Source: a virus. From it: a DNA stretch of 54,320 nt. The notes under the pieces are model-generated. The model had not been told where the DNA came from. It did not search any database and was given only the letters and a program-made list of their open reading frames with translations. Where the stretch lies: positions 1-54,320 of the IMG/VR virus record IMGVR_UViG_3300031673_000059; one strand, 5' to 3'. The translations under genes and the position numbers were made by a program. Below are positions 2,095-46,884 of this stretch, piece after piece (the stretch's first letter is position 1; each line of letters begins with the position of its first letter).

Positions 2095-5000
2095 TCAGCG
2101 GCCTCGCCACGCAGCTCGAAGGCCGACGTCATCGTGCTCGCCCACGATTGGGTTCCGGTGACCGGGTTCTGGTTCGACGCAGCACCAGTAGGTGCCTCGG
2201 GCAGCGCGACTCTTACCTCGTCTGCTGATGTTGTCGAGGTAGAAAAGCATTCCGGCTCGGTTGTCGAGTGGTTGAAGAGGGGGCGGCCAGAAGGGGTTGG
2301 AGAGTCCCTGTCTGACGAGGGGTCCTGCGAACCGGAGGAATGCTGAGTCGCTGCCCCCCTCAGCGACGACTCGGTCCATGTGTCGCTGGTGGTTTTCGAG
2401 GAGCATGCCTGTAAGAGCTCTTGTGAAACTGTCGTCGACTCCTTCGAGGAGGGGGGCCCATTTCTGGGTGTAGCGGTTGACGATGCTCTGAAACTCTGGT
2501 GCCTCAGCAGCGGCACCTCCAGGCCGCTCTTGGAGTAACTCCTGCCTCAACCTCGTCATGGTAGCGAGGATCTCTGATGGTTGAATCGGCGGTGTCGCAG
2601 ACCCAGTTGAGTCCTCGGACGACGCGACCGTCGTCCACACCTCGCTCGGGGGTGCCGTCGTCGATGGTGGCGCAGAAGACGTTGAGTCCGAGTAACTCGG
2701 GTCCGGGAGCGCCGCCGACGATCCGGACCCACTCAGAAAATCCGAGTCACCTCGCTCTCCAGGCTGACCTGGGCCCGAGCCAGCAACGATGTTCACCGGC
2801 TCGGATGATCCTGGAGTCGAAGGCCTCTCCATGCTGGTAGGACTGCCAGTTACCTCCTCGGACGGTGCAGGATCCGAACCCCATCTGCTCGATGGCTCGG
2901 TCCATGACGGATCGTAGGTAGATTCGACCGCTGGTGTTCCGGGGGGCGATTCCGAAGGTTCCCTCGACGATGTGTGTGAGTGGTCTTGGGTTGACCATGA
3001 TGGCCGCCGCTTCTGCTCTTGTGATGTTTGGGCCGTAGAGGGCCCTAACCCAAAAGGGACGTCATCGGGCCCTCCATGCCGCCCGTGGACCGGCCGTAAA
3101 GTCGGGGAGTTCGGGATCGAGCCACCAGGAATCGGCCCGATCCCACCCCTGCCAGTCTCCGCCTCTGAGCGTGTAGGCGTCGATCCCGATGTAGTGCGCG
3201 ACTTCGGGCGAGACTCGCATCCAGTTGGCTGGGTTTCTGACGGTGAGCTCGTAGATTCGTTGGGCCGCCGCCGCGACCCTGGCGATAAAGGGAGGTCACC
3301 TTGCTCTCCAGGCGCACCTGAGTCCGACGTCTCTGACGTCGTTTCCGGCACCTCGCTGCCGTCTGGCGACGAAGCCCTCGTCCTCTCCTCTGAGGACCTT
3401 AGGTCGATCCTCGGCGGTGATTGCGATGTAGGGGGCGTAGATGAACCCGGTGTCAAGGACTGTGTCGCCCTTGTAGCCGAAGAGGAACCCCGTCCTGTCT
3501 CCGTCCTGGGACTGGTCAACATGGATGAGGCGGCCGCCGTCTTGGGATGAGAATGGGGGCTCTGGGTGGACCGTCCACCCAGGCCTGATCCGAAACCCGA
3601 GTCACCTCGCTCTCCAGGCCCCTCGGAGTCCGAGTCCGTGGTCGAGGTCCCAGCCCCAGACTCTGCCGGTGTCGAGGCCTGGGTCGGCGAGTTCGAGCCA
3701 GCAGATCCCCCGGACCCTGATCCGGGGCTGGAAGGGTCCGAGCCGACCGGCGTTGCGTCCTCCGCGTAGGGGCCCAACCCCATCCCGAGGTCGGAGTAAG
3801 CGTCCATGTGCTCGTAGTCAGCGTACCGGTCGAGCAGCTGCCCGGAAGGAGACATGAGACTGTCGCTCAAGGACCCCGAGCTGGTCTCGCCATCCTGGAG
3901 ATCCCTCTGGGGGTCGTCCGACATTCCAACTGATGGACTTGAGGATGTATGGGATACCGTCCTGGTAGAAGATGCCTCCGAGGTAGCAGCGTCCGAGTTC
4001 GCCGAGCTCGATCTCGCTGCATGGGTTGACCCCGAAGGCTCCGTAGGGTCCGAGCTAATGAACCCTGGCTCTCCAGGCTGTCCTGACGCCTCCTCGGTCA
4101 ATGTTGTGGCCCCTGAAGGAGGCGCCTCGCTCCCAATCCCGGGGGGACTCATCCCAGGAGTAGCTTCGGATGAGGAATCGATGATGTTGCATGCGCTCTC
4201 GGACGGAGAGGCCTGCGTAGGGTCCGAGCTAGGCTCTCCAGGCTGGTCGGAGTCCTGCGTCCTGGGCCCCTCCGACTGCTCGTCCGATGTTGCTGACGGG
4301 GAACGGATAGGTCCCGCCGTTGAGATGATATGTAGGAGGGAATCCGTAGTCAGGAACGGGGTTGATGTAGGGTCCGGGCGTTGCTCGCCGTTAGCGATGT
4401 AGCCATTCTCGGGCAGGTCCTCGACCCCTCGAACCCACTGGCACCTGGTCCATTCGAAGACGTTCCCGCAGTTGTCGTGGAGCCCCCAGTTGTTCGGATC
4501 CTTCAGGCCAACTGCCTTGTGCCCGTCCTCAAACTCGCCGCCGAACCAGGCGATCTTCTTTAGGTCCTCATCCGTGTCGCCGTTGGGGTAGCGCGTAGTC
4601 GCTCCGGCCTTAGTCGCGTATTCCCACATCGCCTCAGAGGGGAGCTGAAAGCCGACCCGCTCACCCTTCTCGTTCCAGAGCCAGGCCTGGTAGGCCGCCT
4701 CGACCTCTGCTGAGAACACCAGCGCTTGGTTCTGGACAGGCAGAGGCATGATGTCCGTGTTGACCTGTTGCTCCCACTCTCTCCACGTCAGCGTGAAGGT
4801 CTGATCTGAGTGTGTGAACTTGCAGTTGGTCAACCGTGCAAAGTCCAGCCGGTTGATGAAGTCCTCGACCTCACGGCACCGATCCCAGGAGACGCTCTCA
4901 ACAGGGTGCTCCCCCCACCTGCGCCCATCAGAGTCCTTCAACTCCATGCGGGTCGCAGGCCCGAACGGCGCGTCACCCATGCGGGTGACGTTAAGCCCCT

Positions 5001-5428: not shown

Positions 5429-6817
5429 TCAGACTCCAAAGAGCGCATGGAAGAAGCTCTTGGGCTGGTAGGCCTTCTTCTCGGGCTGCTTGGGCGTGAC
5501 CTTGACATTGGGCGAACTGGGACCACTCGACGGATCGAGTCGCAGCAGCTCATCACCGCTCATGGGGCCCCGAAGGAAGCTGTAGGCCCACCGGATCTTG
5601 GTCACAGCGTGCTCCCCGCTCTTCTTCAGGATCAGGAAGTGCCGCTGAGGAATCGACGTCAGGGTCGACGTGTCCACGTTCCGGCTGGAAAGCTCCTTCT
5701 TGAGGTCCCGGGCGCAGTCCCGGGGCCGCAGCTTGCCGAGGAACCAAGTGCCGACGTTGGTCAGCGCCTTGTAGTCCATGTCGTTAGGGTTCTGAGTCCC
5801 GATCAGCATACCGATGCCCTGGGCCCGGCCCTGAGCGAGGAGCGTGCAGATCGGCTTCTTGGTCGGCGGGTTGAGCGGGTAGGGCGGGAGGTAGCCCCGC
5901 GCCTCGTCCAAGACGACCAGCAGCTTCAGCTTGTTGCTGGCCGGCGCCCGGAACATGTAGTCCACGATCGCCGACAGCAGCATGCCAGCGAAGAACTGCC
6001 GCTCACCCTCGTCCAGGTGTCGGAGGGAGAACACCGAGACCTTAGGCTTGCCGGTGCCCACGTAGCTCTCGATCGAGAGCGGAGAACCGTCGAGCCACTT
6101 GGTCGCTTGCCGCCGGAAGCCGACGATCGACCGAGCGATCTGCATCCGCTTCTTCTTGGGGAAGAAGTCGTCGAGGCTCAGGCCATCGATCTCCTTCAGA
6201 TTGGCAGGGGGCGTGTTCAGAGCGGCGGACCACGTGTCCAGACCGGCCGCCTGACCCGAGGCCCAGGCGTCGACCATCACGTCCGTCAGGAAGACGTTCG
6301 CGGGGTCGGTCATGGGGTCGGCGGTGTGGCCGATCGCGTTGAGGACTCCGGCGACCAGGGCCGAGGCCCGGTCCCGCAGCGCTTGCTCACTGTAGTTGCC
6401 GGTGGGAGCGTCGAAGGACGCCAGGACGTTGACGGACTGGCCGCCGCCTCGGGTCTTGCCGGGGGCGTAGATCGTGACATCGGCGGCCGACTTCCACCGC
6501 TGGACGTTGGGAGCCAGGTGGCCGAGCTCCTTCCGAGCTCGGTCAGCGATCTCGCCCGGGTCCTTGCCGTCCTCCGCCCAGGGAGCGAATTCGCCGGCGG
6601 CCAGACCGGGGAAGGCCAGGGCCAGATTGGTGAGGTCGCCCTTGGGGTCAATGATGATCGCGGACGCGCCGCTCAGCACGGCCTCTTCGATCGTGGCGAC
6701 GGTGGCGCCGGTCTTGCCGGAGCCGGTCCGACCCAGGACCACGCCGTGGGTGGTAAGGTCGGCGGGGTCGATCGTGAGAGGAGTTCCGTCGTTCTTGGTG
6801 CCGATCAACATGCTCAT
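5429..6817 (-). CDS. HerA/FtsK-like P-loop ATPase (DUF87-type).
   Basis: Walker A GRTGSGKTG and Walker B LLVVLDEA. The start is placed at the internal ATG at 6817 (MSMLIGTK...) because the GGTAGAAA-N5-ATG start-associated motif precedes it. The ORF track begins at 6856. Confidence 0.75.
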   Translation of the reverse strand: MSMLIGTKNDGTPLTIDPADLTTHGVVLGRTGSGKTGATVATIEEAVLSGASAIIIDPKGDLTNLALAFPGLAAGEFAPWAEDGKDPGEIADRARKELGHLAPNVQRWKSAADVTIYAPGKTRGGGQSVNVLASFDAPTGNYSEQALRDRASALVAGVLNAIGHTADPMTDPANVFLTDVMVDAWASGQAAGLDTWSAALNTPPANLKEIDGLSLDDFFPKKKRMQIARSIVGFRRQATKWLDGSPLSIESYVGTGKPKVSVFSLRHLDEGERQFFAGMLLSAIVDYMFRAPASNKLKLLVVLDEARGYLPPYPLNPPTKKPICTLLAQGRAQGIGMLIGTQNPNDMDYKALTNVGTWFLGKLRPRDCARDLKKELSSRNVDTSTLTSIPQRHFLILKKSGEHAVTKIRWAYSFLRGPMSGDELLRLDPSSGPSSPNVKVTPKQPEKKAYQPKSFFHALFGV

Positions 6818-27352: not shown

Positions 27353-27380
27353 GTCTGGGTTTTACCGGGTAGAACATGGT

Positions 27381-28121
27381 ATGACTCGAATGACGATCAT
27401 GAGAGGTGGACCGGGCTCTGGTAAGAGCTTTCAGGTTGCCCAGCTCTGCTTCACCAGGGACAAGGCTCCTGTCGTCTGCTCTGCGGACGAGTTCTTCGTT
27501 GATGACAACGGAAACTACAGCTTCGATCCCAGATGGCTGGGGAGGGCCCACGGCGCTTGCCTGAAGAAGTGCGTGGAGTCGATGGTCGCTCGGGAAAACG
27601 TCATCATCGACAACACCAACAGCAGTCCGACCGAGATGATCCCCTACCTGGCCTTGTGTCAGGCGTTCGGTTATTCCTGCACTGTGATCAAGGTCCTTTG
27701 CGACCGGAAGATCGCTTGGAAGCGGCAGTCGCACGGAGTGCCGGAGGACAAGTTCAACGAGATCCACTCCGCCGTTGAGCAGACCAAGGTCCCGTCCCTT
27801 TACCGGGGTGCTCCGTGGCTGACCGAGAGGGAGGTCAGGTCGGACGGACTCTATCGGCCGCATCCCAAGATCTACCAGCCCTACTCCGGAGCTCGGTGCA
27901 TCAAGTGCTCCGGCAACATCGTCTACAGCTACTCCGACGGGACCAAGGAGGGCTTCCGGTACTGTGACCACGAGGAAGACTGGTGCACGTGCCCTGACGG
28001 TCAAGAGGAGCCAGGGGAACCGTACGCTGGTCTCCCCCGCGAGTGCAACTGCGGGGTGAGCAAAGGCCTGCGGTCCGACCACGAGTCACAGTGTCAGGCG
28101 ACCTACATCCAGAGGAAGTGA
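27381..28121 (+). CDS. P-loop kinase of the AAA_33/polynucleotide-kinase family, with a Cys-rich C-terminus.
   Basis: Walker A GGPGSGKS and VIIDNTN. The start is placed at 27381 (MTRMTIMRGG...), after CCGGGTAGAAC-N5. Confidence 0.65.
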   Translation: MTRMTIMRGGPGSGKSFQVAQLCFTRDKAPVVCSADEFFVDDNGNYSFDPRWLGRAHGACLKKCVESMVARENVIIDNTNSSPTEMIPYLALCQAFGYSCTVIKVLCDRKIAWKRQSHGVPEDKFNEIHSAVEQTKVPSLYRGAPWLTEREVRSDGLYRPHPKIYQPYSGARCIKCSGNIVYSYSDGTKEGFRYCDHEEDWCTCPDGQEEPGEPYAGLPRECNCGVSKGLRSDHESQCQATYIQRK

Positions 28122-31161: not shown

Positions 31162-31196
31162 AAGCACTTCTACCGCGTTCGGAGGTAGAACCAGTC

Positions 31197-31505
31197 ATGT
31201 CCACCGAGACGATCACCGAAACCGATACGACCACCAGGCTCATCCCGCCCTGGCACGTGATACTCCTCAACGACGACGACCACAGCTTCGAGTATGTCAT
31301 CGCCATGCTCTACGCGGTCTTCGGGTTTCCCCCTACCAAGGGGTTTAAGCACGCCGAGGAGGTCGACGCGACCGGTCGGACCATCTTGATTACTACCAGT
31401 CGTGAGCACGCCGAGCTGAAGCAGGAACAGTGTCACGCCTTCGGCCCCGACCCCCTAGTCCCCAGGTGCAAGGGATCCATGACCTGCATCATTGAGCCAG
31501 CATGA
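31197..31505 (+). CDS. clpS: ATP-dependent Clp protease adaptor ClpS.
   Basis: PPWHVILLNDDDHSFEYVIAMLYAVFGF...EVDATGRTILITTSREHAELKQEQ matches the ClpS core. GGAGGTAGAAC-N5-ATG. Confidence 0.8.
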   Translation: MSTETITETDTTTRLIPPWHVILLNDDDHSFEYVIAMLYAVFGFPPTKGFKHAEEVDATGRTILITTSREHAELKQEQCHAFGPDPLVPRCKGSMTCIIEPA

Positions 31506-31985: not shown

Positions 31986-32488
31986 TGGGAATGAGCTACA
32001 GGACCTACGTGGGGCCCTATCTCTGGTGCAGTGTTCGGACCCGACCGGCGACAAAGGAGATCAGGCTCTGCGCGCGGTCGGAGTGCCGGTTCTTCCGAGA
32101 GAGCAGTCCCATGCCCAGCGACAGCAACTTCTGCCCCCAATGCGGCACACCGGCCGTAGACAAGATCGTCGAGGTCGAGGGACAGGTCGAAGAGATCCTC
32201 AGCAGCTGCGATCTCATGGAGGCCACCAACGAGAATCTAGTTCCGGTCAACAACAACTACGCGGACGCCGGGGTCCACCTGTTCGTCTCGAACCTCGCCA
32301 AGGCTCCGGGCCTTCGACTGGAGAGGGGAGGAGATCTCGGCGAGATCATGCAGTATGACGGTGTGATCATTGATCAAGAGCTCACGGCCTTCAGGGAGCG
32401 GCACGCCGATGATCTGGAGATCGTCTACGAGCACTACGGCGAGGATCGTGTTGAGGTCCGGTGGGGCGTGTTGGCCTCTTACGGGTGA
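31985..32488 (+). CDS. Hypothetical protein with a zinc ribbon.
   Basis: MGMSYRTY...CARSECRFF...CPQCG. TGATG overlap with the upstream gene. Confidence 0.5.
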   Translation: MGMSYRTYVGPYLWCSVRTRPATKEIRLCARSECRFFRESSPMPSDSNFCPQCGTPAVDKIVEVEGQVEEILSSCDLMEATNENLVPVNNNYADAGVHLFVSNLAKAPGLRLERGGDLGEIMQYDGVIIDQELTAFRERHADDLEIVYEHYGEDRVEVRWGVLASYG

Positions 32489-32808
32489 AAAAGACGAAGA
32501 TCGTGAACTGTCTACGCGAAGAGTTCGATGTGTATATCGGACGAGCGGGCAAGGGTCACGACGGAACCTTCGGTAATCCGTTCAGGCGCGGCCCGGACGA
32601 CCCCCCAGGCTCGACGCTCATCAAGTTCGAGGAGTATTTCCTCAAGCGCGTCGAGGAGGACCAGGAGTTCCGAGAGAAGGTTCTCGCCCTAAAGGGTAAG
32701 AGGTTAGGATGCTTCTGTCCGCCTAAGAGGGCGTGCCACGGTCGCACCTATGTCAGGTGGCTGGACGGCGAACCCGAGCCAAAGGCGGAGCAGCTGGAGT
32801 TCTTCTGA
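32485..32808 (+). CDS. DUF4326 family protein.
   Basis: KIVNCLREEFDVYIGRAGKGHDGTFGNPF...LKGKRLGCFCPPKRACHG. The GTG start overlaps the upstream TGA. Confidence 0.65.
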   Translation: MKKTKIVNCLREEFDVYIGRAGKGHDGTFGNPFRRGPDDPPGSTLIKFEEYFLKRVEEDQEFREKVLALKGKRLGCFCPPKRACHGRTYVRWLDGEPEPKAEQLEFF

Positions 32809-33128: not shown

Positions 33129-33146
33129 CGCCGGGTAGAACACGGT

Positions 33147-33485
33147 ATGAGAGAGCCCCCGTACGACAAGATCGAGCTGATAGACCTCAAGCCGTGCCCG
33201 TTTTGCGGTCATACGCAGCGGGGAGTGGAGCCGAACACTAGGGTCCGGATCATGTTCGTCGGTATGGCCGTCTACGTACAGTGTGGGCGCTGTCGTGCGA
33301 TAGGGTCTAGTGTAGGGATACCGGGCCACATTGATGAGCTTGGTGCGTTTATGGATATGGTTGCCGACGTAGACATCTTCGGCCTCCCGTCAAACCCTCG
33401 GGCATTCAACGACTGTGAACTCGATCTCTGGATGTCGCAGCTCGCCGCCAAGTTCTGGAACAACCGAAAGCCCCAGCGAGCGTGA
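33147..33485 (+). CDS. Lar-like restriction-alleviation / zinc-ribbon protein.
   Basis: LKPCPFCGHTQ...VQCGRCRAIG. CCGGGTAGAAC-N5-ATG. Confidence 0.5.
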   Translation: MREPPYDKIELIDLKPCPFCGHTQRGVEPNTRVRIMFVGMAVYVQCGRCRAIGSSVGIPGHIDELGAFMDMVADVDIFGLPSNPRAFNDCELDLWMSQLAAKFWNNRKPQRA

Positions 33486-33840: not shown

Positions 33841-34806
33841 CTAGTAGGGCGTTCCGGCCAACGTGATCAGAGATGCGAACTCCGGCCTCACGAGTGTGAT
33901 TTTGTGCCGGGTGCGGATCGCGCGCCGAAGAGTCTTGTCGGCCGGATCTACGAAGTTCGGTGTGATCTCGACCATGGTGTAAGGACTGTAGATGACGCAC
34001 GTATCCATTACGCTGTCGTCTGCCTGATACCAGGCCAGCAGCTTCCCTACGGGGAAGAGGGGATCCAGGTAGACGCCCCTGCCGTCAACCTCGCCGATTT
34101 TGGCGATGCCGTCTGCCTCTTGGACGTCAAAGCCAAGCTGGGCCAGCATCGCCGCGTTGCCAATGACCCTGTTTGCCGGGTTCCGCTGAGACCCCCGATG
34201 GACGATGTGGGCCGCCCTGTCCAGAGCTTCTTTGAGATCACCGCCGGCGGCCAACTCGATCTTGTTGTTGTCCAGGACGCCGTTCAGGATCGTTCCTACG
34301 ATCTCCCGAGCCACCTCGGTCAGGAGTGCGTCGATGTTCAGAGCCCCCTCTTCGTTGACGTCGGTGTGTGCCTTGCAGCGCCTCGACTCCGCTCGGATCT
34401 CTTGAGGGATGATGTCCAGCACGACGGAAGGCACCTTGACCTTCCTCTCGACGCCGTCTTGAATCAGGGTCGCCTCCTCCATCTCCCCGAAGCGCGGCTT
34501 GTAGTAGTAGACGATCCCGATCGGCCCAGTCATCGGCTGCACCGCGCAGAGGTCCGGGAGCACGTGGGTCCGGACCGAGGCCTTGAGGTTATCGAAGAGA
34601 TCCTCCGTCCACGAGCCGAGGACCAATGCCCGGGTCTCCTCGACGAGACGCTGAAGGTGTCTGCTCTGGTTCTCGCAGACCATGGCAGCGATGTTCGACC
34701 TGTAGCCGTCCTCTAGGCCCCACTTGGTGCGGAGCTTCTCTAGATAGCTCTCGTCCGGCATACCATCAAGCTGAGTCATAGTTCCTCCTGATGCGGAGGG
34801 TACCAC
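33841..34806 (-). CDS. T4 gp24-like capsid vertex protein (paralog of 34825..35778).
   Basis: KLRTKWGL...AMVCENQ, VQPMTGPIGIV, NPANRVIGNAAMLAQLG and YLDPLFP...VIYSPY match conserved T4 gp23/gp24 blocks (KW..L.G...A.I..FENQ; CGVQPM..P.G; N.I..S.N....L; Y.D....YYAPY). Confidence 0.6.
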   Translation of the reverse strand: MVPSASGGTMTQLDGMPDESYLEKLRTKWGLEDGYRSNIAAMVCENQSRHLQRLVEETRALVLGSWTEDLFDNLKASVRTHVLPDLCAVQPMTGPIGIVYYYKPRFGEMEEATLIQDGVERKVKVPSVVLDIIPQEIRAESRRCKAHTDVNEEGALNIDALLTEVAREIVGTILNGVLDNNKIELAAGGDLKEALDRAAHIVHRGSQRNPANRVIGNAAMLAQLGFDVQEADGIAKIGEVDGRGVYLDPLFPVGKLLAWYQADDSVMDTCVIYSPYTMVEITPNFVDPADKTLRRAIRTRHKITLVRPEFASLITLAGTPY

Positions 34807-34824
34807 AACTACATCAGATTTACA

Positions 34825-35778
34825 TCAGACAATCTGCGCCAACCGCTCCAGGACGTTGACCTTAACCACCTGGATGTGGCTCGGATGGGCCACATGGATG
34901 TTGTGGTTCAGGTAGATCGCGAAGTTGTGGCGGCCGTCCATCGGATCGAGCGGGTAGCAGAAGGGCGAGTAGACGACCGGCGTGTCTACGATGCTTGGTC
35001 CCATGTACCAGAGCATTACTTCACCGTCAGGGAACAGCGGATCCAGGTAGACGTGCATCCTCTGCTTGTAGACGCCTACCTTCTTCACCAGGCCGGTATC
35101 AGTCGTGTCCCACTCGTCCGGATCCTCCGGCGAGAAAAGCTCCAACATCTTCTCATTGCCGATCACGTGATTGGCCGGGCCCCGCATGCAGCGCTTGTGG
35201 ACCATCTGCGAGGCGCGAAGGATATCAGTGTCGAACGCGGTGTAGGTCGACTCCAACACATTGCCGGCGGCCGATCCCGCGCCGTGCATGACGCCCAACA
35301 CCTCGCGGATGGACGCCAGCATGACCGAGTCGAACACGCTGTCGATGAGCGCGAAGTTTCCTGGGTAGATCCTGACGCCGAGTCGCCTGATGGAGGCTTG
35401 GACGTTGACCGTCTGCAGGTTCAACGTCATCGTCGGGATCGATGTGCTCCCAGGAGTAGTGGGTCCGGCCGGCGTGGTGATGTTGGTTTGGCCGTAGAAG
35501 CCGATGGTGTCTGATGGCCTCCGTAGGGGCTGGACCGACACCATGTCGATCAGGGGGCAGTGCACCCAGGCCTTCACGAGAGCTCGGTAGAACTTGTCCT
35601 TCCAGTTGTCGCCATAGGTCTCTTCCAGATCATCGGGGATCAGCGATGAGCAAAGGACGTTGGCCTGGTTCTCCAACAGTAGAGCGATGACGCCAGAGCG
35701 CTTGTGATGGCCGGGGAGGTAACCCTCCCACTTCTCGGTCAGAGCCTTGATGTGGTCGTTGTCCAACATGGTGGGCAT
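34825..35778 (-). CDS. T4 gp23-like major capsid protein (short form).
   Basis: LTEKWEGYL...ALLLENQ, VQPLRRPSDTIGFYG, GPANHVIGNEKML and YLDPLFPDGEVMLWY...VVYSPF. Paralog of the adjacent gene. Confidence 0.6.
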   Translation of the reverse strand: MPTMLDNDHIKALTEKWEGYLPGHHKRSGVIALLLENQANVLCSSLIPDDLEETYGDNWKDKFYRALVKAWVHCPLIDMVSVQPLRRPSDTIGFYGQTNITTPAGPTTPGSTSIPTMTLNLQTVNVQASIRRLGVRIYPGNFALIDSVFDSVMLASIREVLGVMHGAGSAAGNVLESTYTAFDTDILRASQMVHKRCMRGPANHVIGNEKMLELFSPEDPDEWDTTDTGLVKKVGVYKQRMHVYLDPLFPDGEVMLWYMGPSIVDTPVVYSPFCYPLDPMDGRHNFAIYLNHNIHVAHPSHIQVVKVNVLERLAQIV

Positions 35779-44190: not shown

Positions 44191-44239
44191 TCGATGAATC
44201 AGGGCTCTTAGACGTTGGCGGTGAAAGGTAGAACACACC

Positions 44240-44416
44240 ATGAGTCAAGTCCCGTGCACCGGCCCTGAGTGTCTGCTCTGTAAGCTCCTTGGCGAGCCCA
44301 CCTCCGTTCAGGTTCCGGTCAAGGACCTGAACGACGACGGCAAGGTCAAGTTGATGACCATGAAGAAGAACAAGGCTCTGGAGCTCGGCCTGATCAAGGA
44401 CGAGGCTAATGACTGA
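44240..44416 (+). CDS. Small protein of 58 aa with CxxC...CxxC (below the ORF-track cutoff).
   Basis: MSQVPCTGPECLLCKLLGEP... GGTAGAAC-N5-ATG. The stop overlaps the next ATG. Confidence 0.5.
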   Translation: MSQVPCTGPECLLCKLLGEPTSVQVPVKDLNDDGKVKLMTMKKNKALELGLIKDEAND

Positions 44417-46076: not shown

Positions 46077-46820
46077 CTAGTTATCGAAGGCGATGACGAT
46101 TCTCACCTGATCCGGCGGTCCGAGAGCCACCAGCGAGGGGATCACGTCCACAAAGTTCTGGACGACGTCCCGGTAGGTCCTGGGCAGGGTGAGGGCCACG
46201 TAGGGTCCCAGCTGTTGGTAACCCCCGCCCAGACGGCACTTGCGTCGCCTGACCAGCTTCTTGGTCGTGTTGCTCAGTAGCAGCAGAAGCATCTCATCCT
46301 CGGTCACCTCTCTGTGGACGGCCACCAGGTCCTTGTGCCACATCGCCCGGCCGGTGACGTATTGCTCCTCCTCCAGCCTGGAAGGGAGCTTCCCGGTGTC
46401 CTTCCACTCAAGGTATTGGTTGGCGAATAGCGCCATTTTCTCGTGAAAGCAGACCGTGTCCCAGTCAGCGTCGAGGAGCTCCTGGACCGTGAAATGGGTG
46501 TGGGAGTGATACTCGTGGCTCTCGGCGTCAAGGGCTTTCAAGGTCGCCTTCGCGGCGTCTTCTGGAAAGCCCCGATTAGCGAATAACGCATCAACTGATC
46601 TCCATCGAACGCCGGCCAGGACTCCGAACAGAGCGTAGTTCCTCTCAGAAAGTTCGTTCAGATAGTCCGGCCATTCAGCCAGCCACTCGTCGTAAGGGAC
46701 ATCCTCACCTCTGTCCTCTCGACGACGACGGCTGGACCGGCGGCCATCCTTCGAGTCACGGAGCCCCCACCGGCCGTTTCGGCCCTTCACCTCGATCACA
46801 GGATGCGCGTCGGTTCCCAT
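46077..46820 (-). CDS. Hypothetical protein.
   Basis: The start is at 46820 (MGTDAHP...), preceded by GGTAGAAC-N5. Confidence 0.55.
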   Translation of the reverse strand: MGTDAHPVIEVKGRNGRWGLRDSKDGRRSSRRRREDRGEDVPYDEWLAEWPDYLNELSERNYALFGVLAGVRWRSVDALFANRGFPEDAAKATLKALDAESHEYHSHTHFTVQELLDADWDTVCFHEKMALFANQYLEWKDTGKLPSRLEEEQYVTGRAMWHKDLVAVHREVTEDEMLLLLLSNTTKKLVRRRKCRLGGGYQQLGPYVALTLPRTYRDVVQNFVDVIPSLVALGPPDQVRIVIAFDN

Positions 46821-46884
46821 GTTTAGTTCTACCTTCGATGAATCGCTGTTGGTCGCTCGTTGGTTCTGAAAGGTAGAAGAACGT

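Follow-up and report, generated by a model that had tools for sequence, protein, structure and literature searches.

A ClpS-Family Protein of Planctomycete Type Encoded by a Jumbo T4-like Phage Lineage

Introduction

The ClpS proteins of Escherichia coli and Caulobacter are characterised N-degron adaptors of the protease ClpAP. ClpS has also been noted in jumbo phages, where it was proposed to bring targets to the ClpAP of the host (PMC7824862, Iyer et al. 2021), and gp708 of Agrobacterium phage Atu_ph07 is annotated as ClpS (A0A2L0V0Y2; PMC6102473). In addition, it was reported that a group of Planctomycetes ClpS proteins, that of the PS961 parent, natively binds N-terminal Leu, Ile, and Val (Reed et al., bioRxiv 10.1101/2022.01.04.475002). 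The presence of ClpS in jumbo phages is thus already known, the annotation "ClpS" is already assigned automatically to such proteins, and nothing in this respect is overturned here. In the literature searched, no experimental test of any phage-encoded ClpS was found, whether as feeding, blocking, or re-targeting the Clp protease of the host.

The present study deals with a clpS-like gene on a viral DNA of 54,320 nucleotides, IMG/VR record IMGVR_UViG_3300031673_000059 (positions 1 to 54,320), which is called the window below, meaning this whole stretch. An earlier interpretation of the letters, here the sequence-only reading, had proposed that the gene encodes a phage ClpS that could direct the host protease toward or away from N-degron substrates. 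The gene encodes a ClpS-family protein, and its residues, relatives, and history in the phage lineage are considered here together with what the protein would do during infection.

Family Assignment and Fold

The open reading frame (ORF) of 102 codons plus stop (Table 1; the stop codon is TGA) is present with the sequence described before, and the GC contents of its three codon positions are 0.53, 0.45, and 0.81, of which the third fits a coding frame. Its product matches Pfam PF02617 (ClpS) over residues 17-81 with 55.4 bits (E 5.4e-15), the curated gathering score being 23 bits, and is also matched by PHROG 27368, a family of phage ClpS-like proteins (E 4.8e-8). An AlphaFold2 model built from 102 family sequences has a mean predicted local distance difference test score (pLDDT) of 88.3 and a beta-alpha-alpha-beta-alpha-beta topology behind a flexible N-terminus (strands at residues 19-24, 61-67, and 96-101; helices at 31-42, 46-59, and 69-81). 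This is the ClpS alpha/beta fold, a three-stranded sheet against three helices. When the model was compared with the PDB by Foldseek, places 1-38 were taken by ClpS structures without exception; the free-standing chains among them had target-normalised TM-scores of 0.79-0.92. The Pfam score, the model, and the PDB matches together establish the ClpS family and fold. The sequence-only reading had described the match as almost residue-for-residue, which is true of the protein's own subfamily; the characterised ClpS structures are only 21-27% identical in the fold alignments.

A Jumbo T4-like Phage Lineage

The window represents 54 kb of the genome of a jumbo T4-like phage, in whose lineage ClpS occupies a conserved position; the full genome probably measures 200-400 kb. 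Two neighbouring Gp23-type capsid paralogues, an ATP-dependent DNA ligase, a DEAD-box helicase, a HerA/terminase-like ATPase, and a DHH phosphoesterase are encoded in the window, and no tRNA gene was found in it. The paralogues resemble the pair formed by the T4 major capsid and vertex proteins. The capsid pair, the ligase, and the helicases, together with synteny with viral contigs, show that the replicon is viral, so the phage origin assigned to the gene earlier holds.

The neighbourhoods of two related ClpS proteins, P0008 and P0018, are syntenic with the window and share NUDIX, nucleoside deoxyribosyltransferase, ClpS, DUF4326, and Gp23 genes; DUF3841, AAA_33, and Lar-like genes are additionally found around P0008. 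The syntenic phage contigs that carry ClpS measure 94-400 kb, and the P0008 type lies in IMG/VR on a viral contig of 204 kb; the related phage genomes include IMGVR_UViG_3300025150_000002 (203 kb) and JGI Ga0210043_1000020 (182 kb). P0018 also occurs on a Logan contig of 94 kb (SRR27751815; locus L098) and on a 400 kb NCBI contig, which is filed as a metagenome-assembled genome (MAG) of "Nitrospira sp." and is evidently a mis-binned jumbo phage. A bacterial origin of the homologue contigs of 150-400 kb was considered and dropped because their gene context is that of phage synteny.

An identical ClpS protein is encoded on several metagenome contigs, and proteins 75-88% identical to it on contigs of up to 400 kb. 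When homologues were clustered at 90% identity, the first 44 clusters of the hit list (72-100% identical to the window ClpS) bore the phage-type signature, and the contexts examined, three of three, were syntenic phage contigs. Neither megablast with the 7 kb around ClpS nor tblastn with the protein (E <=0.001) gave a match among 50,697 GenBank phage records. Between phage copies, the ratio of nonsynonymous to synonymous substitution rates (dN/dS) is 0.075-0.24 with dS >1, i.e., with synonymous sites near saturation. The gene is thus under purifying selection, and the low ratio combined with the high dS indicates that it is old in the phage lineage and has been maintained there.

Cellular Relatives and Probable Origin

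Cellular homologues occur in 212 species genomes, and the best 80 of them belong almost entirely to Planctomycetota, including Gemmataceae, Gemmata, Fimbriiglobus, Limnoglobus, and Singulisphaera, where the gene stands in ordinary chromosomal contexts; the Planctomycetota chromosome OY970367.1 is one carrier of the homologue. The nearest homologues, in this phylum, are 58-73% identical over the compared stretches. A second cellular clade (clade 2), with the signature LLDDDDH...AYLHACEVD, is labelled only "Planctomycetota bacterium". In 180 of the 200 bootstrap replicates of a neighbour-joining phylogeny of an 86-column core, the phage-type sequences form a group with clade 2 that leaves out the Gemmatales clade. 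Strict monophyly of the phage type was recovered in 2/200 replicates, and in 31/200 with intermediates allowed; neither a single capture event nor a particular order is claimed, since phage-type monophyly lacks bootstrap support.

Because the closest cellular relatives are Planctomycetota, the phage gene probably came from that phylum, and the host is probably to be sought there as well, with which the 60% GC of the window is compatible. It appears probable that a very large T4-like phage lineage captured ClpS long ago from a Planctomycetota host and kept the gene. This amounts to a phylum-level host prediction for a jumbo-phage lineage that has no relative among the GenBank phages searched.

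With regard to gene order, a gene for an FHA-GAF-SpoIIE (PP2C) protein lies upstream of ClpS on the same strand in about 70 of the 80 Gemmatales-type loci (L018-L097), and in 52 of these it adjoins ClpS (tblastn). Most of the loci in which the two genes do not adjoin have a gap sized for one inserted gene. A gene of about 390 aa, VWA-like by eye and without a profile check, stands between the PP2C gene and ClpS in about 18 loci. The FHA-GAF-SpoIIE protein itself measures about 560-575 aa (for instance, positions 4247..5974 of L008, where ClpS follows at 6001..6324). To our knowledge, no connection between ClpS and a PP2C phosphatase has been described, and the association in Gemmatales highlights an unstudied link. 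MAG contigs labelled "uncultured Alcaligenaceae" or "Bacteroidales" (L030, L033, L056, L061, L065, L075, and L083) also show the planctomycete-type arrangement of FHA-GAF-PP2C and ClpS genes, with 72-79% identity to the protein of Gemmataceae; these bins probably bear wrong taxonomic labels.

In three clade 2 genomes, a conserved ORF of 117-121 aa (Table 1) overlaps or abuts the ClpS start and is followed by ClpS, gidB, and the gene of an S8 peptidase of about 1600 aa. This small ORF was absent from the window and all phage loci, and likewise from the Gemmatales loci. One clade 2 locus has an FHA-domain gene within 3 kb of ClpS, and another has a Ser/Thr kinase gene at a distance of about 6 kb.

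Proposed Function and Conserved Residues

We consider it fairly probable that the phage protein is a functional ClpS adaptor of the planctomycete subfamily, which would act on the ClpA/ClpC-ClpP protease of the host during infection. Briefly, the hydrophobic pocket of the folded core would bind the free N-terminal residue of target proteins, whose alpha-amino group would be held by the NDD motif and Asp57. Helix 3, with E70, E73, and K75, would dock on the N-domain of a ClpA- or ClpC-type unfoldase of the host, and the flexible, Thr-rich extension of 16 residues would enter the pore of that unfoldase. The phage ClpS would supplement or override the ClpS of the host, and the host Clp protease might be shifted during infection to N-degron substrates and off its other substrates, to the presumed benefit of the phage.

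For residue comparisons, the family profile was aligned with E. coli ClpS (reference sequence identical to PDB 1mbu_C), without gaps over the core and with a numbering offset of 9, and residues were counted in 141 family members, namely 44 phage-type, 81 Gemmatales, and 16 clade 2 sequences. On the side that would face the unfoldase, all 141 sequences have E70 and E73, and all but one, which has Arg, have K75; this is conservation at the level of sequence. In E. coli, the residues E79 and E82, which correspond to the two glutamates, stabilise the complex with the ClpA N-domain (bioRxiv 10.1101/2024.06.12.598358). On the side of the substrate, N34, D35, and D36 of E. coli, the acidic motif for the N-degron alpha-amino group, are kept as N25, D26, and D27; D26 is invariant, D27 is found in 138/141, and position 25 is either Asn or Asp. 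V43 and V65 are kept in the family as V34 and V56, and the position of L99 is an invariant Met (M95), so that a hydrophobic residue is retained.

Between helix 3 and strand 3, phage and cellular copies alike have a loop six residues longer than that of E. coli; in solved ClpS structures, this loop forms a border of the pocket. In this loop (FGPDPLVPRCKGSM), G83, D85, G93, and M95 are invariant, and C91 is nearly so. Phage and cellular copies do not differ at any functionally annotated position, and for that reason the phage ClpS should match the cellular planctomycete protein in biochemical activity. Three positions alone set the phage-type copies consistently apart: W19, which is Tyr in Gemmatales and Tyr or Trp in clade 2 (Trp in 7/16); H52, which is Leu or Met in Gemmatales and His in clade 2; and residue 97, mostly Cys in the phage type and Ala in both cellular clades.

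As for the partner, neither a Clp ATPase nor ClpP is encoded in the window, and no Clp ATPase was found within 5-10 kb of ClpS in six phage loci and in the cellular loci examined (mainly from Pfam lists). When approximate sequences of E. coli ClpP and of ClpA D1/D2 segments served as tblastn queries, neither the window nor any of the loci gave a match. The absence of these genes from the window and from the flanks of related loci implies a partner supplied by the host.

Several points weigh against an adaptor of the host protease. The sequence-only reading had named conservation of the binding pocket as the check on its proposal, and this conservation is partial, as four pocket residues of E. 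coli ClpS are replaced. T38 has become H29, a His that is invariant in all 141 sequences; the gatekeeper M40 has become F31, with Tyr or Phe throughout the 141; and M62 has become A53, an Ala invariant in the family. The canonical His66 is represented by D57, the family having Asp in 123/141 (42/44 phage-type, 65/81 Gemmatales, and 16/16 clade 2 sequences) and His in a minority of 16/141. In addition, all 10 of the 10 NCBIfam ClpS equivalog models stay far under their cut-offs (the best reaching 30.8 bits vs 117), which marks the protein as a divergent ClpS that is not filed as an equivalog of E. coli ClpS; the models for the canonical proteobacterial type include PRK00033 and PRK13019. In the loci examined, the ClpS gene of the cellular relatives never adjoins clpA or clpC. 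The sequence-only reading had also expected a ClpS/Clp pathway in the host, and with this the closest cellular homologues, being Planctomycetota ClpS proteins, agree. The adaptor reading presupposes a ClpA or ClpC with an N-domain in the host, and literature searches on Clp unfoldases in Planctomycetes yielded nothing specific. Finally, the window covers 54 kb of a probably much larger genome, so a phage unfoldase could be encoded elsewhere in it.

The pocket changes are invariant or nearly so across the subfamily, cellular copies included, and for this reason they point to altered specificity and not to inactivation. M40 of E. coli ClpS keeps out beta-branched side chains, and, by analogy, a pocket without this gate would fit binding of Ile or Val. 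In Mycobacterium smegmatis ClpS, it is the DD-motif Asp that forms a salt bridge with the amino terminus of the peptide, whereas the contribution of the His is only indirect and runs through a metal ion. Given that salt bridge, it is plausible that a pocket with Asp in place of His66 could still hold the amino terminus of a peptide. With its strong purifying selection, its cellular counterparts, and a pocket altered at four defined positions, the window ClpS offers a clean case for study.

The N-Terminal Extension and Alternative Explanations

About 16-18 residues precede strand 1 in the window ClpS. The model has low confidence in the extension proper (MSTETITETDTTTRLI), with mean pLDDT values of 60 (residues 1-10) and 76 (residues 11-20), and assigns no secondary structure to residues 1-18. 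With 16 residues, the phage-type extension is shorter than those of the cellular clades (21-23) and of E. coli (25). Its Thr content is 37% in the 44 phage-type sequences; the core has 5.7%, and the extensions of the cellular planctomycete copies and of E. coli have 17-28% and 4%, respectively. This enrichment could reflect phosphorylation sites, a tract that engages the pore or is "slippery", or plain low complexity, and it is a matter of speculation that the two-residue periodicity would be compatible with engagement of the unfoldase pore.

The extension bears directly on a second explanation, the main rival, which we regard as unlikely but worth weighing: the phage protein may act chiefly by inhibition or as a decoy. 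Such a protein would block the N-domains and pore of the host ClpA or ClpC, or sequester N-degron proteins, and would thereby shield phage proteins, for example virion proteins with new N-termini after protease processing, or block Clp-dependent responses of the host. The conserved docking residues agree with this, as do the short extension of low complexity and high Thr content and the consistent differences of the phage copies from Gemmatales at W19, H52, and C97. In another viral lineage (L014-L017, see below), moreover, the ClpS-like protein has almost no extension, and a ClpS of that kind is expected from E. coli work to bind and not to deliver. Judged by truncation studies in E. coli, on the other hand, 16 residues are still enough for delivery. 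A Thr-rich extension is, moreover, a trait of the whole family, cellular members included, and so is not a disabling change peculiar to the phage; H52 is common to clade 2, and W19 is present in some of its members. In favour of inhibition, PMC8666677 describes E. coli ClpS as inhibiting the degradation of other ClpA substrates.

A third explanation, doubtful in our view, starts from the cellular gene order. Here, the planctomycete-type ClpS would be a regulatory module controlled by Ser/Thr phosphorylation, in which the extension is phosphorylated, read by an FHA domain, and reset by a PP2C phosphatase, and which might act partly or wholly apart from classic N-degron delivery. The upstream PP2C gene of most Gemmatales-type loci, the Thr enrichment with its alternating T-x-T pattern, and the FHA-domain and Ser/Thr kinase genes near ClpS in single clade 2 loci are in line with such a module. 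However, gene adjacency is its sole link, clade 2 and the phages have no phosphatase neighbour, and the invariance of the unfoldase-docking residues speaks for a Clp-linked role. A combination of these ideas is, if anything, slightly more doubtful: the protein would be a phospho-switchable adaptor of non-canonical N-degron specificity, possibly for Leu, Ile, and Val, and the phage version would be unregulated, its amplified Thr tract escaping or saturating control, and would seize the Clp protease of the host.

That ClpS is a functionless passenger from a host genome, as might be thought of a small gene lying among small accessory genes with immediate neighbours that vary between related phages, is very improbable in view of the low dN/dS at dS above 1, the phage-type signature shared by 44 clusters and found on syntenic phage contigs wherever context was examined, and the intactness of all functional positions.

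Start Motif and Neighbouring Genes

The sequence-only reading had credited the gene with a TAGAAC start motif of its own. This motif is indeed there and is part of a longer element, GGTAGAAC-N5-ATG, which stands directly before the gene and has five exact occurrences in the window against 0.00 expected (Table 1); for TAGAAC alone, the count is 22, with 11.9 +/- 3.5 expected. The hexamer of the motif ends 5 nt ahead of the start codon every time, and a near-identical GAGGTAGAA is found upstream of ClpS in the related phage loci L005 and L011. The element may be a phage-specific signal for translation initiation, or it may be a promoter element of the gene that opens the plus-strand block, such as a -10-like element of leaderless or short-leader transcripts.

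The start codon of the next ORF overlaps the ClpS stop codon (ATGA), which suggests translational coupling of the two genes; this ORF is not kept beside ClpS in related phages, where other genes lie downstream. The block of small plus-strand genes named in the sequence-only reading stands as regards the DUF4326 gene and, narrowly, the Lar-like gene, while its zinc ribbon is a weak, sub-threshold match (19 bits vs 25). Elsewhere in the window, proteins with an FGE-sulfatase domain and of glutamine synthetase-like type are unusual cargo, and an 867-aa ORF without a family match has a GC content of 87% in its first codon positions, a bias that points to a possibly repetitive protein with many Gly, Ala, Val, Asp, and Glu residues.

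Table 1. Coordinates of the ClpS gene, its parts, and other features (in the window unless a locus is named).
Feature	Position	Strand	Basis or remark
ClpS-family gene, 102 aa + stop	31197..31505	+	ORF (ATG at 31197, TGA at 31505), Pfam, fold model, selection
N-terminal extension, residues 1-16	31197..31244	+	predicted flexible, Thr-rich, alternating T-x-T
NDD motif and pocket, N25-D26-D27-D28-H29-S30-F31	31269..31289	+	gapless profile alignment, residue counts (141)
Pocket wall, A53-E54-E55-V56-D57	31353..31367	+	profile alignment, residue counts
Helix 3, E70-H71-A72-E73-L74-K75	31404..31421	+	equals E. coli E79/E82/K84, ClpA N-domain docking surface
Extended helix 3-strand 3 loop, residues 82-95	31440..31481	+	alignment, residue counts; pLDDT ~90
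Start motif GGTAGAAC-N5-ATG of ClpS	31184..31199	+	directly before the ClpS gene; GGAGG (Shine-Dalgarno-like) ahead of the motif
All GGTAGAAC-N5-ATG sites	27368..27383, 31184..31199, 33134..33149, 44227..44242, 46833..46818	+, +, +, +, -	exact occurrences
Downstream ORF, 102 aa	31502..31810	+	ATG overlaps ClpS stop; no Pfam match
DUF4326 gene	32485..32808	+	62 bits
Lar-like ORF	33147..33485	+	29.1 bits vs cut-off 28.6
Gp23-type capsid paralogue 1	33841..34806	-	partial match to Pfam Gp23 profile
Gp23-type capsid paralogue 2	34825..35778	-	partial match to Pfam Gp23 profile
FGE-sulfatase-domain protein, 1101 aa	2095..5400	-	unusual cargo
Glutamine synthetase-like protein, 361 aa	17055..18140	-	unusual cargo
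867-aa ORF	51434..54037	-	no family match
Clade 2 small ORF	L099 4628..4993, L101 6635..7000, L102 6447..6800		~70% identical between genomes; no Pfam match on record

Comparison with Known Systems

The ClpS proteins of E. coli and Caulobacter (1mbu, 2w9r, 3o2b, and 3dnj) have the same fold as the window protein, with target-normalised TM-scores of 0.79-0.90, and an identity of 21-25% in the fold alignment, or 28% over the core (MAFFT). They have in common with it the NDD motif, V43, V65, a hydrophobic residue at L99, the docking residues E79/E82/K84, and a disordered N-terminal extension. Unlike the clpS-clpA operon of these bacteria, the phage gene is not beside clpA.

Predicted structures of other viral ClpS proteins (Atu_ph07, Klebsiella phage RaK2 H6X3W1, and uncultured phages) are 12-22% identical to the window ClpS, and at this level of identity they look like independent captures from different host lineages. 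An unrelated viral lineage of low GC content (30%), represented by the IMG/VR contigs L014-L017 of 24-107 kb, encodes an 86-aa ClpS-like protein (L014 5974..6234) with NDDDHSF, an Asp at the His66 position, an E..E.K helix, and about eight residues before the core. The capture of ClpS by large phages is recurrent.

The PS961-parent group belongs to the same phylum and protein family as the window ClpS. At the positions of the PS961 mutations (Q55, L68, V72, and Y100), three of the four match the phage ClpS family, E. coli ClpS matching equally well, so that identity of the subfamilies is not established by them.

The planctomycete cellular ClpS proteins (e.g., MCA8923040.1 and MBX3471072.1) are of the same length class as the phage protein and also have the loop longer by six residues and a Thr-rich extension. 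They share with it NDD(D)H, the Tyr or Phe gatekeeper, A53, V56, D57, E70/E73/K75, and M95. The phage protein differs in its shorter (16 vs 21-23 residues) and more Thr-rich extension and in its surroundings, since the cellular gene follows either the FHA-GAF-PP2C gene or the ORF of 117-121 aa, whereas the phage gene is accompanied by neither.

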